Part shown: positions 46,541-63,815 of the stretch, one piece after another
Layout of the letters: the number at the start of each line of letters is the position of its first letter
How positions within the stretch are numbered: the stretch's first letter is position 1
From: Candidatus Dojkabacteria bacterium
GTDB lineage: Bacteria > Patescibacteriota > Dojkabacteria > JAHIVN01
Direction: 5' to 3'
DNA length: 64,000 nt
NCBI GenBank assembly: GCA_016932045.1
Contig: JAFGDO010000012.1
Location: 4,195 to 68,194, forward strand
Notes under the pieces: model-generated
What the model saw: the letters and a program-made list of their open reading frames with translations, nothing else
Told to the model about the DNA's origin: nothing
Database searches by the model: none
Program-made: the position numbers and the translations under genes

Positions 46541-46664
46541 TGTTATATTGCTATACTGCCATATTGTTATGATGATAAATAGCTTGATAGGTGAGTAGCC
46601 GGATAGCTTGCTCCCCTTTGGCGGATAGGCCGTAGTTATAGCTCTTTCCCTCTACTTTTTACAT

Positions 46665-47336
46665 TCAGCTTAGTGAAGTACTGTTATCAAATAAAAGTCT
46701 TGACAGAAAAAGCTTAAGGGGTTTTTGTGAAGATTTATATTCACTTAAACGGGCTGTGACTCTTCTAAGTAGAAGGGTAGCCGTCAAACTCAATGCAAGC
46801 AATTCGTCAAAATTCTCCTTTGTCTGGAAGGTTAAATATATGTAAGCTCCCAATGCGAAAAGTGTCATTGTTGGAGAACTTATCCATTTCCATTCGATAC
46901 CAGCTTTACGTCTAAGGAGTGAAGGTACAATGGTAAGAACAAAGATGATGAAGGGGATTATCGAAGCTTTAAAGGTTAAGAATACAATTACGCCTAAAAG
47001 AGTTCCAACTCCTCTACCTCCAGAAAAGTTGAACCATATTGGCCAGCAATGACCGGCAACTGAAGCTATAGCTATGACAGAAAGCCAATGTTCATCTACC
47101 TCAAGATACTTTGCTAAAGCAAGAATCGGGATACCCTTTAGGAAATCAAAAACTGCTACTATTATGCCCCACTTTAGACCAATATTTTGAGCCACATTTG
47201 ATCCGCCTGCTGTTTGGTAGCCAATTTCCCGTATGTCTTCTTTTTTGGTATACCTTGCAACCAGTATAGCTGAAGAAACAGAACCCAATAAGTAGTTTAG
47301 TATAGTAAGAAGTAATGGAAGAAAATAATTTGTCAT
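46665..47336 (-). CDS. plsY: glycerol-3-phosphate acyltransferase PlsY (acyl-phosphate dependent)
   Basis: GGSNVAQN and FSGGRGVGT match the PlsY GSGNxGATN and FKGGKGVAT motifs; about 5 TM helices; 223 aa. Confidence 0.85.
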   Translation of the reverse strand: MTNYFLPLLLTILNYLLGSVSSAILVARYTKKEDIREIGYQTAGGSNVAQNIGLKWGIIVAVFDFLKGIPILALAKYLEVDEHWLSVIAIASVAGHCWPIWFNFSGGRGVGTLLGVIVFLTFKASIIPFIIFVLTIVPSLLRRKAGIEWKWISSPTMTLFALGAYIYLTFQTKENFDELLALSLTATLLLRRVTARLSEYKSSQKPLKLFLSRLLFDNSTSLS

Positions 47337-47387
47337 ATCTAAATAGTTGGATAGTTAGATAGTTAGAAATCAATCTTCTACTATATA

Positions 47388-48254
47388 TTACTCAAGCAAT
47401 ACACATACCCCCCAAACCTCTGGACCTAAATGACATGCTATTGCAGTAGATATTTGATTGTAGGAAACTACTTCAGCATCGAATTCTTCCTTTATCCTAA
47501 GATTTACTACTTCCATCAGAAAGTCATCTGATAATCCATAGTCATACATCACTTTTACAGTTGTAGCACCAGTACGCACTATATCTTCTTTAATTTTTTG
47601 TACAACAAGTTCAAGGGCTTGATTGTTTGTGCGTGCTCTTGCAACAGGTTCAAGTAATCCGTTTTTTGCTGAAATGATAGGTTTAAATGAAAATATATTT
47701 GCCAGCCATGCCTTTGCTTTGCCGATACGTCCATTTTTTTCTAAGTACTTTAATGTTTGTATAACTCCGTACTCAACTACTCTTCGCTCGTCACGAAGCT
47801 TTTCAAGGTATTTCCAAATTGCATTAAAATCATTTCCTTCGTCTGCTAAAGATTCTGCCACATAAGCCATGAATCCTTCCATTGACACGACAGTTTGAGA
47901 ATCAAATACTTGTATATCCTTTCCTTCATCTCTTAGCTTCTGTGCAGCTTTTTGACCAGCACTGAAAATTCCGGAAAGTTTTGAGGATGCTGCTATGTAA
48001 ATCCCTTGTTCATAGCCCTTCATAGCTTCCTGCATTGACTTTATCATCTCACCTTGTGGCGGAACAGCAGTTGAAGGTATCTCATCAAATGTTGACATGC
48101 TTCTTATAAATTCCTCGGCCTTGTCATCCCTATCGTCTTTCAGGACTTTATCTTTGTGAATAATATCTACAGGGATTAAAAAAATATTTCTTTGCTCAGC
48201 AAATTTATATGAGAGCGAAGCTATTCTCTCGGTAATTATTCTTACTTTGGGCAT
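47388..48254 (-). CDS. fakB: DegV family fatty-acid-binding protein (FakB-like)
   Basis: DegV architecture and length (288 aa); adjacent to a Dak2-domain protein and plsY. Confidence 0.75.
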   Translation of the reverse strand: MPKVRIITERIASLSYKFAEQRNIFLIPVDIIHKDKVLKDDRDDKAEEFIRSMSTFDEIPSTAVPPQGEMIKSMQEAMKGYEQGIYIAASSKLSGIFSAGQKAAQKLRDEGKDIQVFDSQTVVSMEGFMAYVAESLADEGNDFNAIWKYLEKLRDERRVVEYGVIQTLKYLEKNGRIGKAKAWLANIFSFKPIISAKNGLLEPVARARTNNQALELVVQKIKEDIVRTGATTVKVMYDYGLSDDFLMEVVNLRIKEEFDAEVVSYNQISTAIACHLGPEVWGVCVLLE

Positions 48255-48454
48255 TTCCTTTGCATAACAGTTTTAAGGTAGTGTATAACAGTGTTTTTAA
48301 AATAGCAAGACTAAAGCCGATTAAGAATGAAGGACATAGAAAGTTAGACCGTGGACGTTATTATCAGCTGAATAACTACTAATTGCTTAATTTACAATTG
48401 GAGATTGGTATTTTTTTTGATAGCTGTTTAGTGGCTTTTCACCTTAACCTACTT

Positions 48455-50368
48455 TCATTCTAAAGTCACAATATAGTAATAATGAGGTTGGCCACCATCA
48501 TGAACTTGTACCTCAATGTGAAGTTTTTCCCATAGGTTTCGTCTGAGCTGAAAAGCTTCTTCTTTTGAAACATCTTCTCCAAAGTAAAGAGAAATCAGCT
48601 GTGATGAGTTTTTAATTTTTTCTATAGCGTTAATTATAATTTTATTTAAATCTTTGCCTCTCGATAGTAATCTGTTTTCAGAGATAGCGATAATTTCACC
48701 TTTATCAATATTTTGACCTGAAATGGATGTTTTCCTTGTTGATTTCGTTACTGAAAAAGTCTTAATCAGTTTTAATGAATTTGATATCATATCTGTATTT
48801 TGAGTAATGGTACTTAGTGGATTAAAGTTAAGTAGCGCGCTTAGTCCTTGGGCTTGATCTATGGTAGGTAGTACAGTGACATTCTTTTCGCTCTTGTCAG
48901 CGGCATTTTTTGCTGCCAGAAAAACATTTTTGTTATTGGGGAGAATTATAATATTTGAACTGTTCATGGCGGCCAATTTTTTTTCTAAATCCGCAACCGA
49001 CGGATTCATAGTTTTTCCGCCGTTTAGTGAGGTAATTCCTTCAAAGCTTGTATAAATTCGACTGAAGCCATCGCCATTTATAATAGCTAAAACCTTCGTG
49101 TCTTTTTCTTCACCCTTTGTTTCAAGCTTTTTTCCTATAAATTCCTTATGTTGCTTATGAAGATCATCAAATTTGACGGTTTTTACCTTACCAAGACTAT
49201 GAATAGCTTCCTCTGCTTCATTTTTATTCTTTGCGTGAAAGTGTATTTTTGTTATGCTTCCCTTTTGGGCTACGATGACCGAGGAGCCTACTTTTGAAAT
49301 CATTGCTTTGATATCCTTAATAGGTACTTTAACATTAGAAAGGATAGCTTCAGCGCAATATTTTTCCTCAGGAGTTTTCTGCCAGGCGTTAAGAAGCTTT
49401 AGAATTGAGAAATTTGTTTCTTTTATATTTTGCCATTTAAGCTGTTCGTATAGGTTTTTGACCAAACGAAATGCTTTTTTGAATGCTATTAGATTCCATC
49501 CCATCTTCATAACGCCCCAGGCTTTTTTGAAAAGCCACCAAGTATTCCCAAAAGTGAATTTTATGGCTTTTAAATTAAAATCAAGAATTGACCTCAATCC
49601 TCCCATTCCAAAGACACCAGAGGTTTCCTCCCAAATTCTTGCCAGTGGAGGGGATGAGTAGTCGTCAGTACCAGTTATGCCCTCAATGTTATTTTCAGTT
49701 AGTGCTCTATAAAAACCCTCTAAGAAATATATAAATCCAGCTCCGCCTGCATCAACTACTCCTGCTTCCTTAAGTTTAGGTAACATATCTGGAGTTTGCT
49801 TAAGTGTAATTTGAGATCTATTTATGACAGATTTTAAAATTCTTGTAAGATCAGCATATTCTTTCTTTGTATCAAATTCTTCTGTTGCGGATTTCATAAC
49901 CGTGAGAATTGTTCCCTCAACTGGTTCTGATACGCTCGCATAGGCTTCTTTTGTGCCGTTTCGGAATGATTGAAGTAGGGTTTCTTTGTCAATAATCTTT
50001 TTATCTTTTATAGTATCGCAGAATCCTCCAAGAAATTGTGAAAGTATAACTCCGCTGTTGCCTCTACCGCCCATTAGGCTCGATTCAGCTATAATTTCTG
50101 ATAATTCCTTTAGTGAATAGTCCTTTTTAGAATCAAGATTCTTAACTATCTCTTTTAGTGTAAGAGACATGTTTGTTCCGGTGTCGCCGTCTGGGACAGG
50201 GTAAACGTTGAGGTTATTGAGAAGCTCTTTTTTTGCGTTTACTGCCTTTTCTGCAGACTTAAATATTTCAACAAGCTGTGTTGTATCTATTGAAGTGATC
50301 ATCGTCCAATGGGCTATTATAGCAGAAAACTTAGTTCTGAAAAATAGAAAAAAATAAGCAAGCAGCAA
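48455..50368 (-). CDS. fakA: DAK2-domain fusion protein (YloV/FakA-like fatty acid kinase subunit); probable start at internal Met (about 50302)
   Basis: Dak2 motif PVPDGDTGTNM; YloV-like C-terminal domain; the given N-terminal 22 aa are probably an ORF extension. Confidence 0.7.
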   Translation of the reverse strand: MLLAYFFLFFRTKFSAIIAHWTMITSIDTTQLVEIFKSAEKAVNAKKELLNNLNVYPVPDGDTGTNMSLTLKEIVKNLDSKKDYSLKELSEIIAESSLMGGRGNSGVILSQFLGGFCDTIKDKKIIDKETLLQSFRNGTKEAYASVSEPVEGTILTVMKSATEEFDTKKEYADLTRILKSVINRSQITLKQTPDMLPKLKEAGVVDAGGAGFIYFLEGFYRALTENNIEGITGTDDYSSPPLARIWEETSGVFGMGGLRSILDFNLKAIKFTFGNTWWLFKKAWGVMKMGWNLIAFKKAFRLVKNLYEQLKWQNIKETNFSILKLLNAWQKTPEEKYCAEAILSNVKVPIKDIKAMISKVGSSVIVAQKGSITKIHFHAKNKNEAEEAIHSLGKVKTVKFDDLHKQHKEFIGKKLETKGEEKDTKVLAIINGDGFSRIYTSFEGITSLNGGKTMNPSVADLEKKLAAMNSSNIIILPNNKNVFLAAKNAADKSEKNVTVLPTIDQAQGLSALLNFNPLSTITQNTDMISNSLKLIKTFSVTKSTRKTSISGQNIDKGEIIAISENRLLSRGKDLNKIIINAIEKIKNSSQLISLYFGEDVSKEEAFQLRRNLWEKLHIEVQVHDGGQPHYYYIVTLE

Positions 50369-50431
50369 ACAGAAAGATAAGTAAATAGTTAAATAGCTAG
50401 ATAGTTAATTAGTGATAAGGATAGTAGAGGC

Positions 50432-51184
50432 TTAAGAAAAGCAATTAGTTTTTCTCAATTCTTTCATCATTCCGCTGCTATATTGGAGTGCTTTTTTGGG
50501 AGCCTTTACAATGCTTTGGTGTAAACCTAAAGCTTCTGCTACCTTTCTAAGGATGTATTTCCTTATTCCATTCCTAATGAAGAGATCATCAGGAATGTCT
50601 AAAACAAATTCTGCAAGCTCATCATTTGCAAAAGGAAGAATTAGGTTTTTACTGAAGTACTTTGCCATTTTATATTCTCTTTTTTTCAGCATTAATAAGA
50701 ATTCCTTATAACAACTTTTTATTTTAATCTTTACCCCTTTAACTCCCAGATACTTGTAAAACCCTCCAAATAACGTATCTGCTCCGTGTCCGGTAATTAT
50801 ATATTCCTCAGGAATATTTTTTACAAGAATAAAAAAAGGTAAGGAATAGGAAATAGATACCTTATCTTTGTCTCCTGTAAGGAGCATATATTCCTTTAAA
50901 TCCTTTGCTATTTTACTTTGCTGTAATTGTATATGTGTAAGCCTACGTTTAAGTGAAAGATGAGTTGCTGAAGTTGTACTTTGCTTAAAGTCATAACAAC
51001 CGGGAAAACCAATTGTGTACAGTTTAATTTTACAATTAGTATAATTTTTAACTATAAAGGCTACTAAACTGCTGTCGAGACTTCCTGAAAAAGGAATTGC
51101 TACTTCAGGAACATTATTTAATTCTTTCTGAATTATTGAAGTTAAAATGTTTTTTACATCTTGTATGGTTTTATTTTCATTCAT
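50432..51184 (-). CDS. PP-loop ATP pyrophosphatase superfamily protein (asparagine-synthetase C-domain / QueC-like), unassigned
   Basis: SGSLDSS PP-loop near the N-terminus; no C-terminal Cys cluster, so not clearly QueC. Confidence 0.5.
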   Translation of the reverse strand: MNENKTIQDVKNILTSIIQKELNNVPEVAIPFSGSLDSSLVAFIVKNYTNCKIKLYTIGFPGCYDFKQSTTSATHLSLKRRLTHIQLQQSKIAKDLKEYMLLTGDKDKVSISYSLPFFILVKNIPEEYIITGHGADTLFGGFYKYLGVKGVKIKIKSCYKEFLLMLKKREYKMAKYFSKNLILPFANDELAEFVLDIPDDLFIRNGIRKYILRKVAEALGLHQSIVKAPKKALQYSSGMMKELRKTNCFS

Positions 51185-51295
51185 ATTTTGAACAACTGGA
51201 CTGTTAGATAGCTAGATAGTCAAAAGATCTAGTTCATCGGATCAAATTCTTTACTTAGTGTATAATTATACTATCTAATATATTACAAATGTAAG

Positions 51296-51895
51296 ATGAA
51301 TTATAAAAATATAGCAGAGTTTCTTTTTGAGGTAGGGCAGGCAAGAAATGTTCAGAATGTTGGTTGGCAGCTAATTAACGCCGAAAATATTCCTTCAATT
51401 GCAGAACATTCTTACCGGAATGCAATTATTGCCTTACTTCTAGCTGAAATGGAAGGTGTAGAAAACATTGAAAAAGTAGCTTTAAATGGACTTTTACATA
51501 AATTGCATAAAGTACGACTTGGTGACCGTCATAAGGTTTCTGCGAATTATCTTGACTATCCACCGGAAGTAAAATCTTCAATAAGAGGAGATCAACTTTC
51601 ATTGCTAGGAGATGACTTAAAGAAAAGAATAGAAAATATTTTAGAATTAAATGATGAATTAAAAGAAATAGTAAAGGATGCAGATCAATTAGAGTTAGCA
51701 TTAGAAGCAAAGGAGTATATAGATAAAGGGTATAAAAAAGCGCAGGTTTGGCTTGATAGAATTGATCAGGTATTACAGACAAATTCAGCTAAAAAACTCT
51801 TTGACGAGATAATACAAACTCACTCATGTAATTGGTGGCTAAACCTCAAAAAAAAGCCTCAAACTAAAAGAAACGACTATATAAGTAGAGTTTAG
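51296..51895 (+). CDS. HD-domain-like phosphohydrolase (YfbR 5'-deoxynucleotidase-like) with non-canonical HK in place of HD
   Basis: SIAEHSYRNAIIALLLA matches the HD-family first His region; LLHKLHKVRLGD sits where LLHD..E..GD is expected. Confidence 0.45.
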   Translation: MNYKNIAEFLFEVGQARNVQNVGWQLINAENIPSIAEHSYRNAIIALLLAEMEGVENIEKVALNGLLHKLHKVRLGDRHKVSANYLDYPPEVKSSIRGDQLSLLGDDLKKRIENILELNDELKEIVKDADQLELALEAKEYIDKGYKKAQVWLDRIDQVLQTNSAKKLFDEIIQTHSCNWWLNLKKKPQTKRNDYISRV

Positions 51896-52153
51896 GATGG
51901 GTTAGCTATCTCACCCCTATAATTACATTCATCAATCTAGTTGATACTCCGAATATATTTTACAGTTACGAGAAGTTTCCTGTCATAGTGGTTCTATCGA
52001 GGAACTTCCTGAAAAGAGTAGTACCAACATACGCTTACAATATAAGTTATGCTATACTTGGGTCCCATAGTAAATTCGCGGAAAAATTTTTACAAAATAA
52101 GCTTATAGTTATCAACAAAAAACTAAAACACAAATCTTGATATAATTATCATT

Positions 52154-53782
52154 ATGAACAACATAGAAAAGATAATTGTTGAATTATCAAAACTTAAAAG
52201 AATGTCATATAAAAAATTTAGAAAGATTCTTTCGAAGTATCCTTGTGAAGGTACAAGGATTTATTCAAAGAGTGAGATCTTAGGTGGTTATAATGAATTA
52301 ATTAGACAAGGGAAAATAAAAAGAAATATTGGAATAGAAGGTTTTCTGCAAACTAAGCCAACACGAACAATTTCAGGTGTTGCTCCAGTAACGGTATTAA
52401 CTAAACCGTATAAATGTCCTAGAAAATGTATATTTTGTCCGACTCGCGAGGATCAGCCCAAAAGTTACTTATCTTCTGAGCCTGGTGCTATGAGAGCTAA
52501 AATGCTGGAATTTGATCCCTATCGACAGGTAAGTATACGAATTAAAGCACTTGAAAATATTGGCCACAACACAGATAAAGTCGAGCTAATAATTCTTGGA
52601 GGAACGTGGTCGTCATATCCCGAGAAGTATCAAGTTTGGTTTGTAAAGGAGTGTTTCAGAGCGATGAATGAACAAGATAATAAAAGTCATACTAATGATC
52701 AAATTGATCAGCTAAATGATTTAGGTCTACAAGTATTGAGAAAGGAATTATTAATTGAACAAAAAAGAAACGAAACAGCAAAGCATCGCTGTGTCGGCCT
52801 TGTCATAGAAACACGTCCGGACTGTGTTGATGATGAAGAAGTAAAATTCTTAAGATTTCTTGGAGTTACAAAAGTACAGATAGGAGTACAGACTCTTGAT
52901 GATAAAATTCTTAAGTTAAACCAAAGAGGCCACACAGTTAAGGATATTAAGAAGGCTATCACACTGTTACGTCTTGCCGGTTTTAAGCTACATTTACACT
53001 GGATGCTTAATTTGTATGGATCAAATTCTCAAAAGGATTACAGGGATTTTAAAAGACTGTTTGATGATCCCGGCATAAGACCAGATGAACTTAAGATATA
53101 CCCATGTGTGCTTATCAAGGGGACAGAACTTTATGAGTTATATAAGAAAGGTAAATATAAGCCGTATACGAAGGATGAATTACTTGACCTTCTAGTAAAG
53201 TGTAAACAATATATACCAAGATATACAAGAATTAGTCGTTTATTTAGAGATATTCCTTCATTTGAGATTATTGGAAGTGTGAAGGAGACAAATTTTAGAG
53301 AAATTGTACTGAACGAAATGAAGAATAGGGGACTTAGATGTAACTGTATAAGATGCCGTGAAGTTAGAGAATTAAAAATTAAAAATAAAAAATTAAAAAT
53401 TGAGAAGATTCATTACAGAACCAATGTTTCTGATGAATTCTTCATAAGCTTCATAAGTCCGGATGACAAGATTGTAGGTTTTTTAAGACTATCATTACCC
53501 TATAGAAAGTATGCAGAAGCAAATTCTATTCAGGAGATTCAAAACAGCGCAATGATTAGAGAAGTTCATGTTTATGGAGCAAGTCAAAAGTTAAATATAT
53601 CAAGTAAAAAAGCATCGCAACATAAGGGAATTGGGGTGAAGTTAATTAAAAAGGCTGAAGAAATAGCTAAAAGCAGGGGTTTCAATAAAATATCAGTTAT
53701 TTCTGCCGTTGGTACAAGAGAATATTACAAAAGAAGAGGCTACAGGATGGGAGAACTGTATATGTCAAAAGATTTAAAATAA
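52154..53782 (+). CDS. elp3: Elp3-family radical SAM / GNAT acetyltransferase (tRNA wobble uridine modification enzyme homologue)
   Basis: Radical SAM CPRKCIFCP in the Elp3 context (SSEPGAMRA); C-terminal GNAT QHKGIGVKLIKKAEEIAKSRGFNKISVISAVGTREYYKRRGY closely matches the Elp3 HAT domain. Confidence 0.8.
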   Translation: MNNIEKIIVELSKLKRMSYKKFRKILSKYPCEGTRIYSKSEILGGYNELIRQGKIKRNIGIEGFLQTKPTRTISGVAPVTVLTKPYKCPRKCIFCPTREDQPKSYLSSEPGAMRAKMLEFDPYRQVSIRIKALENIGHNTDKVELIILGGTWSSYPEKYQVWFVKECFRAMNEQDNKSHTNDQIDQLNDLGLQVLRKELLIEQKRNETAKHRCVGLVIETRPDCVDDEEVKFLRFLGVTKVQIGVQTLDDKILKLNQRGHTVKDIKKAITLLRLAGFKLHLHWMLNLYGSNSQKDYRDFKRLFDDPGIRPDELKIYPCVLIKGTELYELYKKGKYKPYTKDELLDLLVKCKQYIPRYTRISRLFRDIPSFEIIGSVKETNFREIVLNEMKNRGLRCNCIRCREVRELKIKNKKLKIEKIHYRTNVSDEFFISFISPDDKIVGFLRLSLPYRKYAEANSIQEIQNSAMIREVHVYGASQKLNISSKKASQHKGIGVKLIKKAEEIAKSRGFNKISVISAVGTREYYKRRGYRMGELYMSKDLK

Positions 53783-53797
53783 GGAGAGATTGTTTTC

Positions 53798-54862
53798 TCA
53801 TTTTACCTTTTGTTCTTTATTCATCCTTCTTACTTTCAAGATGATAAAGAAGCTCGTACCAAGGGAGATGCCGGCTGCAAAGGCTATCACTAGCCACCGT
53901 GGAATTTCGAGAGTTTTTGGTTTTTCTCCTGTAAAAGGCAATGTTATTTCAATAACAGTTCTAGGTGGTGTTATCTCAAAAGTCAGAGTATCTATTACTT
54001 CGGTTTTACCATCGCTCGTAACTTCAATATTTAATTTATATTCACCCTTATCAAGTCCTTCCGTATTAATAGTGATTGACCAAGTGCCGTTTTCATCAGC
54101 TTGAGTCTCATAAACCTGCGTTGTTCCTTCTATGACTATTCGCACTAGAGCAAAGGGTGTAGTACTTCCATAGACAGTAAAGGAATCAGAGTGTTCGATC
54201 TCAGGAACATTGTCATACCTGTATCTTACTCCAAGATATTCAATATAATCGACGAGAAGTTTATCTTCTCCATTTTCTTTGCTTTCCTCTTCAGTTTCTT
54301 GCTTCGGTGGAGGAGGTTGTACTGGTTGTGTTGGCGGTATTATTTGCTGTGTTGTGATAAAGCAGGATGATTTATTAAAAGTACAATTGCTGTAGCATGA
54401 TAATGTACCTCCAGTATATCCAAAAGTAGAGCAGCTATAGCCACCTAAGTCATTCTTGTCGCACTCTTCCTCGTCTTGACGTACACCGTTTCCACATGCA
54501 GGTTGTGCTGTTGTGCATTCTGAAGTGTTAAATGTACAATTACCATTACAACTTAATGTGCCAGTGTCGTAGCCTAGTGTAACACATGAATGACCCCCAA
54601 GATTGGTACCGTCACACTCCTCATATTCTTCAATAGCTCCATTGCCGCATGTTGTCACTGTTACATATGTATCTATCGCGCCCAGTATAGATGATTGTCT
54701 CCTCGGCTTTACTAAAGTATACGAACCTATAAATCCTGCATTTACCTTATGAGTGAAGATAAAGATTATTGATATACAGGTGATAATGACAGCAAATATT
54801 AAAGACGTTACATAAATAGCCTCATCTATTTTTTTTAGAAAGTCATTTAGTTTTTTTATCAC
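53798..54862 (-). CDS. cell-surface protein with two Myxococcus-type Cys-rich repeats (CGNGxxEEYEECD...) and C-terminal LPXTG sortase sorting signal
   Basis: Signal anchor; two CGNG...EECD...C...C repeats of about 45 aa; Pro-rich linker; C-terminal LPFTGE, a 20-aa hydrophobic stretch, then KVRRMNKEQKVK. Confidence 0.65.
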   Translation of the reverse strand: MIKKLNDFLKKIDEAIYVTSLIFAVIITCISIIFIFTHKVNAGFIGSYTLVKPRRQSSILGAIDTYVTVTTCGNGAIEEYEECDGTNLGGHSCVTLGYDTGTLSCNGNCTFNTSECTTAQPACGNGVRQDEEECDKNDLGGYSCSTFGYTGGTLSCYSNCTFNKSSCFITTQQIIPPTQPVQPPPPKQETEEESKENGEDKLLVDYIEYLGVRYRYDNVPEIEHSDSFTVYGSTTPFALVRIVIEGTTQVYETQADENGTWSITINTEGLDKGEYKLNIEVTSDGKTEVIDTLTFEITPPRTVIEITLPFTGEKPKTLEIPRWLVIAFAAGISLGTSFFIILKVRRMNKEQKVK

Positions 54863-56498: not shown

Positions 56499-59400
56499 TT
56501 ATCCACACTTTGAGTATCCGCAGCTCTGACACATCATGCAGCCTTCAGCGTATTGTAGATCTCCCCCACAATCAGGACACTCGGGAAGCATATCGTAATG
56601 ATTTTCTTTTACGTAATGTGAAGCATGATCATCTTCTGCCTTTGCGGTTTCTTTTGTTGGGGCGTCATGTGTATTAGAGGTTACTACTTTTGAGTCTGAA
56701 ACATGATTAGTCTGATTTTCAGAAATATCTTTTTCACTTTTTACTTCAAGCTTTTGATTTTCCTTAAACATGGAAATTTTTCCCTCGCGTTCTTTTTTGT
56801 AATTTTCTAATACTTTAGCAATAGCATCTGGAACTGAATATACAAACATGCCTTTATTTAATGTGGGTGCAGACGTTCGAATACCTTTCAGTTGATCAAT
56901 AATTGATTCAAGCGAAAGGCCTGCTCGCAGCGAAACAGAAACTAAACGACCGATAGCCTCACAATAACCAGATGAATAACCTCCGCTTTTGCCTATATTT
57001 AAGAATACTTCTGATATCCCTTTAGAATCTTCATTAATAGTTACATAAAGCGATCCTTGATCAGTTTTAACCTGTGTGGTTACTCCTCTTGTTGTTATAG
57101 GTCTTGGCCGTGGTTCTTCGAGTACTTTTTCCTCACCCGCTACTGTTTTAGTAAGACCAGCTTTTTGCGCCTCATCTTTACAGCCTTCTCTAAATATTGT
57201 AATTCCCTTACATCCTGATTCATAAGCTTGTTGATAAATTCTCTTCACGTTGTCCACGGTTGCACTCTTTTGTAGGTTGATAGTTTTTGAAACACCACTG
57301 TCACAATGTTTCTGAAACGCTGCTTGGATTAAAACATGTATACCCGGGTCAATCTCGTGACTGGTTTTGAAAATTTCAAGTACATCTTCTGGTATATTCT
57401 TATTTTCTGAGAGTTTTTTCCCTTCCGACAAGCTGTTCATCAGGTCATTTGAGTAAAAACCTCTCTGTCGAGCAACTCTTTCAAAAAGATTTTCAACTAC
57501 AGTTTGTTCTTCTCCTCCCAAAGAATTCATTCTCTTAAAAACAAGTGCAAATAAAGGTTCAATACCAGGATTACAGTTAGCTACTATTGAGATAGTTCCC
57601 GTTGGGGCAATAGTTGTGCATCGTGAATTGCGCATATTCTTTATACCTATCTTATCCCATACACTGCCTTTGAACTCGGGAAAATTGCCTCTTTTTTTTG
57701 CGAGATGTTGCGAGAATAGATGTGATTTGTCATTAAGAAAGTGCATAACCTTTTCAGCTATTATGATAGCATCCTTGCTTGAATACGAAACACCAAGCTT
57801 AATAAGCAGATCTGCAAATCCCATAAGACCCAAACCAATACTTCGAGTTGCTTTAGTAGCTCTTTCAATTTCCTTAATTGGATAGTTATTAATATCAATT
57901 ACATTGTCAAGAAATTCAATACCAACTTGTATTAAATATTCAAATTTTTCCCAATTGATATGTTTGAGCTTTTGACTAAGTTTACTCCTGAAAAAATCTG
58001 GTTTCTCAAGATAGGGAAAACCATCTACTATTTTACTTAGATTTATATTTCCCAGATTGCAGGATTCAAAGGGAAGAAGTGGTTGTTCTCCACAAGGGTT
58101 AGTTGCTTCTATTTCACCTAGATGTGGAGTAGGATTCCCTTTTTTGATGTGATCAAGAAATATAAGCCCCGGGTCTCCGCTTTGCCAAGCGTGCTTCGAG
58201 ATGAGATCAAACAATTCACGAGCTTTGACTTTTTCTTTTACAAGCTTGTCATGAGGGTCAATTAATTCCCATTTTCTGTCGTTTTTTACCGCTTGCATAA
58301 ATTCTTCTGTTATCCCTACTGAAATATTGTAGTGTGTAAGTTCACTATCATGATCCTTAGCTTTTATAAATTTTGTGATGTCAGGGTGATCAACATTTAA
58401 GATAGCCATTGAACCCATCTGTCTTCCGCCCCTTCCTATTACAGTATCTTGAGCTCTATTATAAACTTTGAGGTATTCGACTGGTCCTGCGGCATGTTCA
58501 CCTGTACTTTTAACCTTTGCATAGGTTGATCGAAGGTGTGAGAAGTTGAAACCAGTGCCGCCACCATGTCTTAGAACCTCAATATTGTCATTTAAAGTGT
58601 TAAAAATCCCTTTTATGGAGTCCTCGATAGGTAAAACAAAGCATTTGGACCAGATAGCATTCTTACCCTCATTTCCTGCCATTCCTGCCCAGATTAAAGC
58701 TCCTCCGCATTGGAATTCTAGGTTCTTCAAGGCATTAAAGAATTTTATCTTGCTTTCTTCGATTTCAGATTCAGTATAACCATAATTTTTAGCAGCCGAA
58801 GATATATACTCAGCTATTCGCATAAAGAGTTCTCTTGGTGTTTCTATAACCTTTTCTTCTGAGTTTTTTTTCAATGCACGCTTCTCAAGAACTTTGTAAG
58901 CATTCTTTGTAAGGTTTACTTCAATTGACTTCGCTTTGTATGTTGAAAGCTTTTCGAGTACTTTTTGTAAGGCTTTATATCTAGGATTAAAGCTCTTAAA
59001 GTCTTCTTCGCTGGGAGATTTAGTAAATATATTTAACCCTTCATGTACAAAGATATATTTGTATCTCTTTTGCCCTGTTTTTATGAGTTTACCGGGTATC
59101 TTGGTTATAGAAGAAATAGTATTTTGTGTTGATGGATCGTATATAGCTATAGCACAAGAAATATAGGCTTTTGATCCATCTTCTTTAGAGAATTTAAGGA
59201 TTTTTTTGTACAGTTTGGAAGAATATTCGTCTTGTAAACCAAAGTGCAGAATCTGATCATTTTTTCTTATAAATCTCGGTTTGTTATAGATAAAACCGAT
59301 AGCATCTACTATAACCATGCTACTTTTTTCACTGCCAATTTTCTTAGCAGCTAATTCCACCTCTTTGATTAATCCTCGTTGAGTAGTCTTATTCCTGATT

Positions 59401-61313
59401 GTCTCATTAAGCTTCACTTGGTCACTTATAGTGTCTAAAACATAAGACCCATTATACTGCTTAAAGAATTCCTTTATGTCACCTATTTTGTTTTCATCTT
59501 TTGAGGCTATATGGAGTTTTACCTGTTCCTTTGGTTTGACCTTTACATTTAAGTTGCTTTTTTGGGTACTGACATAGGTCTGGCTATCCTTGCAACCGTC
59601 TCGAAAAATAGTTATACCTTTTACTTTATTCCTATAAGCTTCAATAAAAACTCGTCGTACATCTTCTACTGATGCTTCATTTGAAAAATTAATGGTTTTT
59701 GAAATCGCATTATCAACGTGTTCCTGAAAAGCTGCCTGCATCTTTAAGTGCATCATTGGTTCTATCTCGTGTGCTGTTATAAAAATTCTTTTATATTTAT
59801 CGGGTACTTCTTGTATTTGCAGGATGGGTTTATTATTAGCCAGCTCTTCAAGGAGTTCTTCAGAATAAAATCCTTTTTGCTCAGCAATATATTTAAAGGC
59901 TTGGTTAACATTGAACATTATTTTGGTTGCACGGTAATTTTTGTCTTCAATACCTCCAATTTTGAAGGCTAGAGCATAAACAGGTTCAATCCCACCTGTT
60001 GAACCGCCGATGATACTTGTATTCCCGTTTGGTGCAATTGTTGTTATCGTAGCATTTCTTACTGGTAGTTTTTTCTCTTCCCATTTACTTCCTTTATAAG
60101 CAGGAAATGTACCTCTTTTTTTAGCCAGACTTATTGATGCTTTTATACCTTCTTTCCTGATGAAGCTCATTATCTTCTTAGCATATTCTATAGCAGCATC
60201 TGAGCTATATGAAATTCCTTTTAGTATAAGTACATCGGCAAATCCCATGAGCCCCATACCTATTTTCCTGTTTGTAAACCGAGTGGTCTTTTTTATCTCC
60301 TCAAGTGGATAATAATTTATGTCAATTATGTTATCAAGGAAATGAACAGCAGTTCGGATTGTTTCCTTGAGTTTTTTCCAATTTATATCTTTCCCTTTGA
60401 AATCAAAGTGAGTTCTTAGATTTAAAGCCCCAAGATTACATGATTCATAGGGCAGAAGTGGTTGTTCACCGCACGGATTCGTTGCATTAATTGTCCCAAT
60501 ACTCGGAGTGGGATTATCTTTCTCAAGATTATCAAGAAAAGCAACGCCAGGATCACCTGTTTTGTGAGCAAGTTCTATAATTTCATTAAAAATATATCTT
60601 GCATTAAGTTTTTTCACATTCCTTTTTGTCCTAGGGTTTATAAGGTCGTACTCTTCATCGTTCTGTAAGGCTTTCATAAATTTGTCAGTAATCCCAACAG
60701 AAATGTTGAAATTCATGATAGTTCTATCACGTTCTTTCAGGTGTATGAATTCCAATATATCAGGGTGATCTACATTCAGAATAGCTATATTTGCTCCTCC
60801 TCTTTTTCCTCCCTGTCTGATTCCCATCAAGGCTTCTGAAAATGTTTTTATAAAGTGGCAGGGTCCGGCAGCAACATCGGGTATTCCACCAGCTTGATCA
60901 CCTTTGGGCCTAATTGCAGAAAAATTAAATCCTGTACCGCCGCCCTTCCACTGAACCTGAACAGCATCGGAAAGCGTTTTATAGATACTATCAAGAGAAT
61001 CTTCTATTGGCAGTACAAAACAAGCAGATAAAGTTTTATTTTTTTTGCCTGCATTAAGAAGAGTAGGTGAATTAGGAATAAAAAGAAGATTATAAAGAAT
61101 ATCATAGAATTCCTTTTCAGTTTTTTTTAATTGAGTTTCACTTTTAGTATAAATAAGATCAGCGCTTGATACCCACTTTGCAACTCTTTCAAATAGATCA
61201 TGAGGTGTTTCAATAGGGTGACCCTCCTTATCAGTTTTTAAAAATCGACTTTCCAAAAGCTGAATAGAATTCTCTGTGTAACAGGCCGGCAGGTTATATT
61301 TACCGATTTTCAT
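56499..61313 (-). CDS. nrdJ: tandem fusion of two complete class II (adenosylcobalamin-type, NrdJ-like) ribonucleotide reductase catalytic cores, joined by a ~240-aa linker, with C-terminal Cys-rich redox tail (1604 aa)
   Basis: Core 1 spans aa 1 to about 580, core 2 aa about 821 to 1380. Each has the first redox Cys ([10 protein letters not shown], then [10 protein letters not shown]), the finger-loop [10 protein letters not shown] with thiyl Cys and Glu, and the second Cys (ESCNLG). The tail is ...CPDCGG...[13 protein letters not shown]. Confidence 0.85.
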
Positions 61314-61333
61314 TTTCGAGTGTTAGTAAGATA

Positions 61334-61401
61334 TGAAAAAATAAAGTTATCTTCTGCCCCATATGAAGTAATCTAAATTTTGATTACTTAAAAAGATAAC
61401 T
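61334..61401 (-). terminator. rho-independent terminator-like hairpin (10-bp outer plus 8-bp inner stem) with U-run, 20 nt upstream of the nrdJ fusion start
   Basis: AAGTTATCTT (61343-52) pairs with AAGATAACTT (61392-401); inner AAGTAATC pairs with GATTACTT. On the minus strand a TTTATTTTTT run follows, then the ATG at 61313. Confidence 0.4.
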
Positions 61402-61421
61402 TTTATATGTATACTTTTACT

Positions 61422-62039
61422 TTACATATCAAAATCATCAAAGCTATCTGTGTCTTCAAGATCAGGTATTTTATGATTCCTTAATATTCTTTCGAGTTTT
61501 TCATTTAATTCATTTAGCGAGCCGTCGTTTATTATCACCTCGTCGGAAAGTTTCTTGCATTCGTTTATGTTTGGAAGATATTCTTTGTCAGCTCCATCAG
61601 GAGAATGTTCAAAATCGTCCTTCTTCTTGAATTCTTCTTTGGACATTCCTGCACTTATCTCTTTTAAGAATGTTCTTCTGTATCTAGTTTCAAAAGGAGC
61701 ATCAACGAAAATTATTAAAGCATTATAATCTTCTTTTAATAGCTTAATGTCAGCTGGATGTCTGATAGGACATATCACATATCTTTCGTCTTTTTGTATT
61801 TGCTCTGAGGCCTTTTTTGCCAAAACGCCTAGGCCTTGTTTTTTTCGAAGATCTACAAGTATATCAAGCCAATTTTGTCTATTGCTCATATCTTCCTTTT
61901 GTTTGAGACCTTCATCAAGTATAGGCTGAGTATTTCTTATTGCTTTAAAACCTCGATCAACTAAAAAGTACTGAAGTGCTCCTTTACCCGAAGTCATTGT
62001 CCCAGTTATTCCGATTATAATGTTATTAAGCTTAACCAT
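61422..62039 (-). CDS. P-loop nucleoside/nucleotide kinase-like protein with acidic C-terminal tail (dephospho-CoA kinase / NRK / dNK-like fold), function unassigned
   Basis: Walker A GITGTMTSGKG at the N-terminus; 205 aa; C-terminus DLEDTDSFDDFDM; embedded between the RNR genes on the same strand. Confidence 0.55.
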   Translation of the reverse strand: MVKLNNIIIGITGTMTSGKGALQYFLVDRGFKAIRNTQPILDEGLKQKEDMSNRQNWLDILVDLRKKQGLGVLAKKASEQIQKDERYVICPIRHPADIKLLKEDYNALIIFVDAPFETRYRRTFLKEISAGMSKEEFKKKDDFEHSPDGADKEYLPNINECKKLSDEVIINDGSLNELNEKLERILRNHKIPDLEDTDSFDDFDM

Positions 62040-62081
62040 ATATATAGTATTTTAAGTTATATAATAAAATAATCAAGCCGA

Positions 62082-63815
62082 TTATTTTGATTGAATGTTT
62101 AATACTTGTTTATCTCTGCTTCTATTTCTATATATTGTAACACCTTTTAGTTTTAATTTATATGCAGAAAGATATATTTTCTCAATTTCCTTAATTGAAA
62201 TATCTTCAGCTACATTTATGGTTTTTGAAACAGCATTGTCAGTGAATTTTTGAAATGCCGCCTGCATTTTCAGATGCCACAAAGGCTCTATCTCATAAGC
62301 AGTTTTGAAGATTTTTTTCATGCCGTCAGGAATTCCTTTAATATTCTGAATGCTTCCAGATTTTAAAATCTTTTTCATGAGCTCCTTGCTAAATAGCCAC
62401 TCTTCCTTCAGTTTTTCTTCGAGAATTTTATTAACAATAATTAATTTTTTATTGCCAAGTGTTTCCATGTTTGAACGATTATAGGCTAACGCAAAAAATG
62501 GCTCTATACCGCCGTTACAATCGGCAAAAAGGGAGATAGTACCAGTCGGAGCAATAGTTGTAATTGTAGCATTTCTCATGTTTTTATAGCCAAGGCGTGA
62601 AAATATACTCTTCTTGAAGCTGCCAAAGTTCCCCTTTAGCTTTCCCTGCTTACTACTCTCATCTCTTGTTATTTTTTGGATAAATCCCATTAGTTCTTCG
62701 GCTATTTCGAGTGCTTTCTTGCTATCGTAAGGGATAGATAATTTTGCTAGCATATCAGCCCAACCCATTATCCCAAGACCAATTTTTCTGTTGCCCTTTT
62801 TAACAATTTTTTCAATTTGAGGGAAAACATAATAGGCAATGTCAATTGTATTATCTAGAAATCGGACGGCAAGTCTCAAAATCTTTTCTAATTTTTCCCA
62901 GTGGATATTATTCTTATTAACAAACTTAGTAAGGTTCACTGAACCCAAATTGCATGCTTCATAAGGAAGAAGAGGCTGTTCACCACACAGATTAGTCGCT
63001 GTTATTTCCAAAAGTTTTGGAAGCGTATTCTTTTTATTAATCTCGTCAATGAATATAACGCCGGGTTCGCCGCTTGCATGAGCACTTTTTGCAATACTTG
63101 CCATGAGGTTTCGTGCTGACACTTTCTTTGTGGTTTTTCCATCATTCGGGTGTTTCAGTAGGAAATCGTCACCTTTCTCGTATGCCTGCATAAATTTATC
63201 TGTGATAGCTACAGAAATATTAAAATTAGTTAGTTGTGACAAATCTTCTTTTACAGCGATAAATTTTTCAATATCAGGATGATCGATTCTTAAGATTCCC
63301 ATATGTCCAGCATGTCTTGCGCTTCCACGGTTCAGTATAATCTCTGATGAAAAGTCGAAAAGCTGCATAAATGAAATAGGACCTGAGGATTCTTTGCCTG
63401 TAGATTTAATGAGAGATCCTTCTGGCCTTAAAGGGGAAAAGTCATATCCTACTCCAGCACCTAGCCTATGGAGCTGGACAGATTCATACAGAGTCTTATA
63501 AATTGATTCCAAACTGTCTTCAAGCGGAAGAACATAACATGCAGCCATAAGCTTTCTTCTTCCTCTGTCTGAGAGTGCAAAACCTGATAGGAATTCGAAA
63601 TTGGCCATCATTTCATAGAAATCCTTTTCAAGCTGTAATGTATCTTTTCTAGAAGTTTTATACTTGGTCTCAGCTGAAGCAATGTGTTTCGCAATTCTTC
63701 TGAACATGACATCTATCGTCTCTCTGGGTTTCCCATTCTTATCCAGCATTAGATACCTATTTTTAGCAATAAGCTTCTGTTGCTCATTAATTTGTATTTT
63801 ATTTTCTAGTTTCAT
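62082..63815 (-). CDS. nrdJ: class II ribonucleotide reductase (NrdJ-like) third paralogue, lacking the C-terminal Cys-rich tail
   Basis: AACYVLPLEDS; finger loop [18 protein letters not shown]; GDPGVIF; TIAPTGTIS; ends KGVTIYRNRSRDKQVLNIQSK with no Cys. Confidence 0.85.
   Translation of the reverse strand: MKLENKIQINEQQKLIAKNRYLMLDKNGKPRETIDVMFRRIAKHIASAETKYKTSRKDTLQLEKDFYEMMANFEFLSGFALSDRGRRKLMAACYVLPLEDSLESIYKTLYESVQLHRLGAGVGYDFSPLRPEGSLIKSTGKESSGPISFMQLFDFSSEIILNRGSARHAGHMGILRIDHPDIEKFIAVKEDLSQLTNFNISVAITDKFMQAYEKGDDFLLKHPNDGKTTKKVSARNLMASIAKSAHASGEPGVIFIDEINKKNTLPKLLEITATNLCGEQPLLPYEACNLGSVNLTKFVNKNNIHWEKLEKILRLAVRFLDNTIDIAYYVFPQIEKIVKKGNRKIGLGIMGWADMLAKLSIPYDSKKALEIAEELMGFIQKITRDESSKQGKLKGNFGSFKKSIFSRLGYKNMRNATITTIAPTGTISLFADCNGGIEPFFALAYNRSNMETLGNKKLIIVNKILEEKLKEEWLFSKELMKKILKSGSIQNIKGIPDGMKKIFKTAYEIEPLWHLKMQAAFQKFTDNAVSKTINVAEDISIKEIEKIYLSAYKLKLKGVTIYRNRSRDKQVLNIQSK

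Follow-up and report, generated by a model that had tools for sequence, protein, structure and literature searches.

Ribonucleotide reductases (RNRs) are the textbook case of an enzyme in which one active site serves four substrates, with allosteric switching at a symmetric dimer interface. The locus analyzed here lies in a 64-kb stretch of a Candidatus Dojkabacteria metagenome-assembled genome (assembly GCA_016932045.1, contig JAFGDO010000012.1, positions 4,195 to 68,194; hereafter the window). It encodes three paralogous catalytic cores of a class II RNR, predicted to be adenosylcobalamin-dependent, of which two, denoted c1 and c2, follow each other in a single protein of 1604 amino acids (aa), whereas the third, c3, is a free-standing protein of 577 aa. 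The rule of one catalytic core per polypeptide, assembled as a homodimer, does not hold for this family, given that the 1604-aa protein and 116 homologues contain two cores each.

The best match of each of the three cores, in sequence and in structure, is NrdJ of Thermotoga maritima (PDB 1XJE and 3O0O), which has the same fold, chemistry, Cys/Asn/Cys/Glu/Cys set of catalytic residues and effector-site residues D141 and R171, and which likewise carries a long C-terminal extension with an IscU-like domain and a zinc finger. In T. maritima, there is one core per chain and the enzyme is a homodimer, whereas here three diverged cores, two of them in one chain, are accompanied by one tail, and loop 2 and the N-terminal motif depart from the canonical form in all cores, least so in c1. 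The NrdJd enzyme of Stackebrandtia nassauensis has a comparable six-Cys tail, which binds zinc, delivers electrons to the active site and drives assembly into tetramers and hexamers; passage of electrons from one subunit's tail to a second subunit's active site has been demonstrated, and dimerization is effector-dependent (Loderer 2017, PMC5704485). The subunits of that enzyme are identical and each is tailed, whereas two of the three cores described here are tail-less. Cores devoid of their own cysteine-rich domain are found in the split NrdJa+b enzymes, such as NrdJa+NrdJb of Pseudomonas aeruginosa, in which this domain is a separate protein (PMC5704485; PMC9669993). The same division, with the tail encoded elsewhere, is proposed below for c1 and c3, although in P. 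aeruginosa a separate small tail protein accompanies a single kind of core, and here one core out of three carries the tail in its own chain. In some Frankia and Alphaproteobacteria, two NrdJd proteins are present and only one is tailed (Loderer 2017, PMC5704485). The monomeric NrdJm of Lactobacillus leichmannii is a single-chain answer to the requirement for a dimer-like specificity interface (Loderer 2017, PMC5704485); however, its inserted domain mimics the partner and there is one active site, whereas here the partner would be a complete, catalytically equipped core. Finally, the tandem ATP-cones of class I RNRs (NrdAz; P. aeruginosa, Chlamydia) are a known case of an RNR domain that was duplicated in a single polypeptide and then diverged, but there the duplicated unit is small and regulatory, with decay of its inner copies, whereas here a whole core of ~590 aa has been doubled and its catalytic residues have been kept.

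A preliminary description of the locus, made from the DNA alone, had remarked that its author knew of no described RNR with covalently tandem catalytic cores. Our survey of 8 million open-access papers and preprints, with the subscription-only literature outside its scope and absence therefore no proof, agrees with this remark, as it yielded tandem ATP-cones but no tandem catalytic cores; look-ups in the text of two comprehensive analyses of RNR family architecture gave no mention of such cores either. What is new here is an undescribed, conserved three-core architecture of orthodox class II chemistry, with a Ham1 insertion in one subclade.

Three class II catalytic cores in one locus

The locus consists of three minus-strand open reading frames (ORFs) arranged head to tail and encoding proteins of 577, 205 and 1604 aa (Table 1). 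Pfam and sequence inspection give the domain order of the largest as c1, Ham1/ITPase-like domain, c2, IscU-like TSCPD domain and six-Cys zinc finger. Complete Ribonuc_red_lgN plus Ribonuc_red_lgC units were recognized twice in the 1604-aa protein and once in the 577-aa protein. Each of the two large ORFs has a 100% identical, full-length counterpart at NCBI, encoded on a 104,271-nt contig of a Candidatus Dojkabacteria metagenome-assembled genome and named 'adenosylcobalamin-dependent ribonucleoside-diphosphate reductase' and nothing more. Because annotation pipelines give all three products one generic reductase name, the architecture is invisible to readers who rely on annotation only.

Each core, when scored alone, exceeds the curated equivalog cutoff (400 bits) of the NrdJ_Z model (TIGR02504), with 622, 597 and 592 bits for c1, c2 and c3, respectively, and thus belongs to the dimeric NrdJ/NrdZ type of class II RNRs. 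The class I model TIGR02506 gave 323, 298 and 339 bits, all under its cutoff of 341, and the model for the monomeric enzyme, RTPR, gave 54, 55 and 73 bits, far under its cutoff of 340. Residues 130-216 of T. maritima NrdJ align to each core without gaps and the insertion typical of monomeric NrdJ is absent, indicating that all three are dimeric-type cores that need a partner to build the specificity site. Models obtained with AlphaFold2 (AF2) for the two fused cores of a relative (P0015) each superimpose on a T. maritima NrdJ monomer with template modeling (TM) scores of 0.82-0.84.

The thiyl-radical Cys, the finger-loop Asn and Glu and the redox Cys pair are all present in c1, c2 and c3 (Table 1). 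In an alignment of 116 c1, 116 c2 and 117 c3 sequences with the corresponding segments of T. maritima NrdJ, the equivalent positions (C134, N320, C322, E324 and C333 in T. maritima numbering) are 100% conserved in all three groups, and 78 columns, including those of D141 and R171, are at least 90% conserved and identical across the groups. Sequence identity between the window and six relatives is 50-65% for c3, 48-66% for c1 and 46-63% for c2. As judged from these patterns, none of the three cores is decaying and all are similarly constrained across lineages; we regard it as quite likely that all three are active reductases.

The three cores share 40-44% protein identity in pairwise comparisons and almost no DNA similarity, which identifies them as old paralogues rather than products of a collapsed or duplicated assembly. 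On all these points the preliminary description stands: the coordinates of the three ORFs match the ORF list exactly; the presence of three class II cores, with a covalent fusion of two, is borne out by both Pfam and the NrdJ_Z search of each core; retention of the catalytic Cys, Glu and redox Cys residues in every core is seen in the window and throughout the family; the alignment to T. maritima NrdJ, which it had proposed as a check, confirms the active-site residues; and its argument that the cores are diverged paralogues, not an assembly duplication, agrees with the identity values. We also considered an NrdJ interrupted by an intein, a common cause of very long RNR genes, and rejected this candidate: no intein Pfam domain was found, and both cores in the ORF are complete, with separate N-terminal domains and sets of catalytic motifs.

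The tandem architecture is a conserved family trait

To place the 1604-aa protein, we used its best 120 matches from a search of 5.8 billion proteins. Two truncated fragments aside, these homologues are 1139-1668 aa long; two NxCGE motifs are present in all 116 full-length tandem proteins, and exactly one C-terminal CxxC...CxxC is found in 119 of the 120. The two NxCGE motifs are spaced ~590-620 residues apart in ~100 of these homologues, which we call direct tandems, and ~790 residues apart, with a Ham1-sized insert, in 17 proteins plus the two fragments. Fourteen full-length homologues are 58-68% identical to the window protein at ~100% coverage. The hosts are Dojkabacteria/WS6, Kerfeldbacteria and unclassified Patescibacteria; a search for the same architecture in candidate phyla radiation genomes had been suggested at the outset. 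Among 1.84 billion representatives of 50%-identity clusters, only P0006 and P0241 gave double-core scores as full-length tandem representatives, and the remaining long RNRs gave single-core scores, so that the architecture is confined to this lineage. Other Patescibacteria, among them a Parcubacteria genome (L026), encode an ordinary single-core NrdJ.

Because the source is a metagenome-assembled genome, we considered whether the fusion might be an artefact of assembly, frameshift or gene calling that joined two adjacent nrdJ genes. We found no support for such an artefact: the ORF is uninterrupted, the same fusion recurs, down to 37% identity, in over 100 proteins whose source assemblies (NCBI, JGI, ENA and Logan) are independent, and the paralogues share no DNA similarity able to cause assembly collapse. 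An artefact is thus exceedingly improbable, and the authenticity of the fusion, as originally described, can be held with very high confidence, as can its conservation. The tandem architecture is a family trait that extends beyond this genome and is already public under the generic NrdJ name.

Table 1. Features of the three-core reductase locus and of the cofactor gene in the window
Feature	Position	Strand	Basis
Core 3 (c3), free-standing class II RNR core, 577 aa, no C-terminal reducing tail	62082..63815	-	C93, N275, C277, E279, C288; loop 2 LNRGSARHAGH; Pfam lgN+lgC; NrdJ_Z 592 bits
P-loop kinase-like protein, 205 aa, probably (deoxy)nucleoside monophosphate ((d)NMP) kinase; accessory gene of one operon subclade	61422..62039	-	Weak family matches
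Fusion ORF c1 / Ham1-like / c2 / TSCPD / zinc finger, 1604 aa	56499..61313	-	ORF, Pfam, identical NCBI protein
Core 1 (c1), residues 1 to ~590	59544..61313	-	C98, N279, C281, E283, C292; NrdJ_Z 622 bits alone; near-canonical loop 2, canonical N-terminal motif
Ham1/ITPase-like domain in the inter-core linker, residues 601-787	58953..59513	-	PF01725, profile match to 1vp2, AF2, Foldseek
Core 2 (c2), residues 793 to ~1383	57165..58937	-	C891, N1072, C1074, E1076, C1085; NrdJ_Z 597 bits alone; divergent loop 2
TSCPD (IscU-like) domain, residues 1415-1505, part of the class II C-terminal extension	56799..57071	-	Pfam PF12637 74.5 bits; PRK08665 positions 599-759; IscU-like reading after Burnim 2022, PMC9669993
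Six-Cys zinc-finger tail, C1579, C1582, C1592, C1595, C1598, C1603 (C-x2-C-x9-C-x2-C-x2-C-x4-C); sole reducing tail of the locus	56502..56579	-	Sequence; function after Loderer 2017, PMC5704485
ATP:corrinoid adenosyltransferase (CobA/CobO/BtuR), 174 aa	40949..41473	-	Pfam PF02572 162.8 bits; tblastn to the L004 gene E=2e-20

A single reducing tail

The TSCPD domain and the six-Cys tail occur once per system, always after the last core, and the six tail Cys columns are invariant in an alignment of 115 sequences. In the window, both elements follow c2 only, as had been claimed from the outset for the CxxC...CxxC tail, and c1 and c3 end shortly past the barrel, without conserved cysteines or a tail. 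By analogy with the cross-subunit electron transfer of S. nassauensis NrdJd, it is mechanistically plausible that, as the preliminary description had suggested, a single tail may serve more than one active site.

Core-specific versions of loop 2 and the N-terminal motif

In RNRs, loop 2 is the element that couples effector binding to the base of the substrate, and the serine of the N-terminal motif contacts the substrate phosphates in the yeast and human R1 structures. As a comparison set, we used 67 single-core NrdJs, relatives of ~50% identity from among the matches listed in a scan of genome contigs with a c3-segment alignment, which serve as the outgroup. In these ordinary enzymes, loop 2 (KQGGTRRGAN) and the N-terminal motif (PNSPTLMNAG) are nearly fixed. 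The combination of canonical loop 2 and PNSPTL.NAG is not retained in the three-core system. The c1 group is near-canonical, with loop 2 LQGkKRgGGN (Q203 and R207 kept) and the N-terminal motif PGsRvLyEAG, the latter being fully canonical in the subclade of the window. The other two groups are clearly derived: c2 has loop 2 rGrGGRglGS and the N-terminal motif cGGtllwag, with a one-residue deletion, and c3 has lNRGavRHAGH and SGMsLLDRG. The version of each core is conserved throughout its group, and this group-specific fixation of loop 2 points to functional differentiation of the cores, which are probably not redundant. The suggestion in the preliminary description that the cores may be specialized gains indirect support insofar as loop 2 and the N-terminal motif are fixed separately in each of them, but which substrates they would prefer is not indicated.

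The same motifs could be read as a sign that only one core still works as a reductase, considering that c2 and c3 have abandoned the canonical loop 2 and phosphate motif and that the inner copies of duplicated RNR ATP-cones lose ligand binding (Burnim 2022 preprint). This possibility appears improbable in view of the invariance of the five catalytic residues in all c1, c2 and c3 sequences, the 78 columns shared by the three groups, the similar evolutionary rates of the cores, and the margin of ~200 bits by which each exceeds the NrdJ_Z cutoff.

A more ambitious proposal would be a single hetero-oligomeric reductase in which each site is tuned to a specificity regime (pyrimidines, GDP, ADP) or to a phosphorylation state, the tail is shared and, in the Ham1 subclade, the Ham1 domain acts as a nucleotide sensor. 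We regard this complete scheme as rather unlikely, and division of labor among the cores, taken by itself, as doubtful. If true, however, this would be the first RNR to replace part of the allosteric substrate switching by dedicated paralogous sites.

The third core belongs to the tandem system

A protein search with c3 returned at least 120 orthologues, 557-605 aa long and without a tail, of which at least 44 are on contigs that match in size those of a tandem protein. In the contigs of relatives from which neighborhoods were taken, c3 is immediately upstream of the tandem gene in all seven cases with upstream sequence (L001-L006 and L087), and c3 is therefore part of the tandem-reductase system.

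This association can also be interpreted as two independent isozymes encoded in one operon, namely, a homodimer of c3 and, apart from it, a c1-c2 enzyme, which operate under other conditions or with other reductants, without associating or sharing the tail. In line with such a view, c3 is never fused despite its constant adjacency, the tail-less S. nassauensis NrdJd works with dithiothreitol (DTT) (PMC5704485), and the Frankia and Alphaproteobacteria mentioned above have two NrdJd with one tail between them (Loderer 2017, PMC5704485). Conversely, c3 and tandem genes are adjacent 1:1 even among lineages of only ~50% identity, in presumably very small genomes, which argues for a single functional unit. 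Furthermore, c3 has no C-terminal cysteines at all and would need an outside electron donor, and in loop 2 and the substrate motif it is no less derived than c2, whereas a self-sufficient enzyme acting on four substrates would be expected to stay canonical. On balance, we consider independent isozymes somewhat unlikely.

A proposed tethered heterodimer with a shared tail

The reading that we favor, with a probability of about 0.58, is that the locus encodes a class II RNR of three paralogous, all-active cores, in which c1 and c2 form a tethered heterodimer and one reducing tail is shared. Under this reading, the locus would specify an adenosylcobalamin-dependent enzyme of the dimeric type, a trait of Dojkabacteria and some neighboring Patescibacteria; c1 and c2 would pair while covalently tethered, and c3 would either pair with itself or dock onto the fusion. 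The cysteine-rich tail would re-reduce c2 in cis and c1, probably also c3, in trans within a higher oligomer, in the manner of the subunit cross-talk of S. nassauensis NrdJd. The three active sites would probably be tuned to different substrate or effector regimes through their own loop 2 and substrate-phosphate motif, and the Ham1-like insert may be a nucleotide-binding or structural module.

Pairing of c1 with c2 is suggested by two considerations. First, c1 is always fused to c2, whereas c3 never takes part in a fusion, which suggests that the former two are obligate partners. Second, in dimeric-type cores the specificity site exists only at the dimer interface, so that a pairing between c1 and c2 is most likely. 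In the direct tandems, they are joined by an E/K-rich linker of ~30-45 residues that is predicted to be flexible. As for structure prediction, which the preliminary description had recommended for the full 1604-aa protein, AF2 was run on residues 1-1195 of the direct-tandem relative P0015 with a 115-sequence alignment. Both cores folded confidently, with a mean predicted local distance difference test (pLDDT) score of 89.9; their relative placement was not confident. An intramolecular dimer is thus neither favored nor disfavored by this model, and the effector dependence of dimerization in S. nassauensis NrdJd may limit what a ligand-free prediction can reveal. Taken together, pairing of c1 with c2 combined with a shared tail is, from the sequence evidence, an evenly balanced proposition.

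Several points weigh against the tethered heterodimer with a shared tail. The predicted TM score (pTM) of the P0015 model is only 0.59, with the linker (residues 588-617) disordered, so that no fixed c1:c2 packing is predicted; the lack of evidence for obligate inter-core packing is equally a point in favor of independent isozymes. Efficient cross-talk in S. nassauensis required tetramers or larger assemblies, and the activity of the tail-less enzyme with DTT (PMC5704485) implies that c1 and c3 could use another reductant. The loop 2 differences represent divergence under constraint and are silent on preferred substrates. Finally, neither an order of duplication nor monophyly of the three cores is firmly supported in a neighbor-joining tree with 200 bootstraps, the values being 29% for c1+c2, 47% for c2+c3 and 60% for all three as one clan.

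In the same tree, c2 (99%) and c3 (100%) form robust clades, and c1 is weakly supported at 52%. A sister relationship of c1 and c2, obtained in the first neighbor-joining tree, was dropped given its low bootstrap. The triplication is older than the split of Dojkabacteria from Kerfeldbacteria-like lineages.

Two different cores in one chain and a third paralogue constitute a natural asymmetric system, which could be used for studies of half-site reactivity, cross-subunit specificity signaling, and trans-reduction by the cysteine-rich tail. That a locus of ~7.3 kb has been kept across a whole class, in an organism with a probably very small genome, argues for a real selective advantage in the supply of nucleotides, in this case for an organism dependent on salvage and on externally supplied B12.

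A Ham1-family domain between c1 and c2

The segment between c1 and c2 had been taken for a linker; instead of a spacer, it is a full-length Ham1/ITPase-like domain. The window insert scores 24.3 bits against PF01725 within the whole protein and 32.3 bits when isolated (cutoff 22.5), and 15 of the 19 inserts match this profile. With the Ham1 region as a single query sequence, phmmer returned nothing from the PDB, and the profile of the 19 inserts was required to match T. maritima Ham1 (1vp2) over its full length (E=1.8e-8). The AF2 model of the insert has a pLDDT of 86 and a pTM of 0.82, and its top 29 Foldseek matches in the PDB are all Ham1, ITPase, RdgB or KomB structures. Hence, by both profile threshold and fold, the insert is a Ham1-family domain. 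It is present in one subclade only, which includes this genome, and evolves much faster than the cores, with 19-40% identity among inserts compared to 58-68% for the whole proteins. No report of a Ham1 domain inside an RNR was found in the literature searched.

Although the fold and the full-length profile homology are those of the Ham1/ITPase/RdgB pyrophosphatases, neither family motif is intact in the window copy: VDAIGF occupies the A-D-D-S-G catalytic site, with Ala at the position of the catalytic Asp, and NPR replaces the S-H-R motif, so that the histidine is missing. An acidic pair followed by [ST]-G, mostly as ADE[ST]GF, is present in 12 of the 19 inserts, and 11 of the 19 read HHR; besides the window copy, six inserts are degenerate at the acidic pair. 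The motifs were compared with those of reference ITPase sequences, and their equivalence is backed by a HMMER alignment to TM0159. With the catalytic residues of the family lost, a nucleotide-binding or structural module is likelier than a house-cleaning enzyme, and the window domain is probably catalytically dead, without pyrophosphatase activity. A precedent is provided by KomB of the Kongming defense system, in which a catalytically dead HAM1 serves as a dITP sensor (bioRxiv 10.1101/2024.12.20.629578) and the catalytic Asp position is likewise substituted.

Operon neighborhood

What separates c3 from the tandem gene differs among genomes. The interval is empty in L004 and L005, contains small ORFs in L003 and L006, a NUDIX hydrolase in L002 (7000-7878; WS6 OLB20) and L087 (6219-6686; Kerfeldbacteria), and the gene for the 205-aa P-loop kinase-like protein in the window and L001. 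The NUDIX hydrolase in some direct-tandem operons suggests that pool-sanitizing or sensing modules were recruited more than once; overall, nucleotide-handling modules, namely, NUDIX, kinase and Ham1, have been recruited to one operon in different lineages.

The kinase-like protein has weak matches only: PRK08356 (59 bits, below the cutoff), DNMK, AAA_18, a PHROG dNMP kinase family (E=4e-5), and an NCBIfam model for 'anti-phage dCTP deaminase'. Sequence comparison with the PDB yielded nothing significant, and database labels are 'hypothetical' or an automatic 'dephospho-CoA kinase'. Its ~28 orthologues are on contigs carrying reductase genes, all in this Dojkabacteria subclade, and the nearest relative outside is the kinase domain of a 342-aa dCMP deaminase fusion (P0418). 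One 35,812-nt contig carries both a direct tandem without Ham1 (P0020) and a kinase-like orthologue (P0414), so that the kinase is not strictly tied to the Ham1-containing subclade.

The operon is headed by the repressor gene nrdR in five of the seven relatives (L002, L003, L005, L006 and L087). No nrdR was found in the 64-kb window or upstream of c3 in L001, and no clear NrdR box was seen by eye in the 185 nt upstream of c3 inside the window. In L004, L005 and L088, the tandem gene has a corrinoid adenosyltransferase gene directly downstream, with genes for DUF4430 proteins coming next in some cases, and B12 activation is thus genomically linked to the tandem reductase in relatives. The adenosyltransferase gene of the window, located 15 kb from the reductase locus, would supply the adenosylcobalamin cofactor. 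These genes are indirect evidence for a putative radical generation by bound adenosylcobalamin.

In the distant relative L088, an IscU/NifU-like fragment (positions 2-253), and not c3, is just upstream of the tandem gene, at the start of the contig. The window (43988-53782) and L001 (12735-20734) have genes flanking the reductase locus in common, encoding a radical-SAM/GNAT ELP3-like protein, a FakA fatty-acid kinase subunit and an Mfd-like helicase. Positions 53798-54862 of the window (minus strand) encode a 354-aa predicted membrane-anchored protein with a proline-rich stretch, a weak match to Big_13 (bacterial Ig-like), and two copies of the cysteine-rich repeat CGNG..EECD..LGG.SC..GY.GG.LSC...C.FN.S.C.

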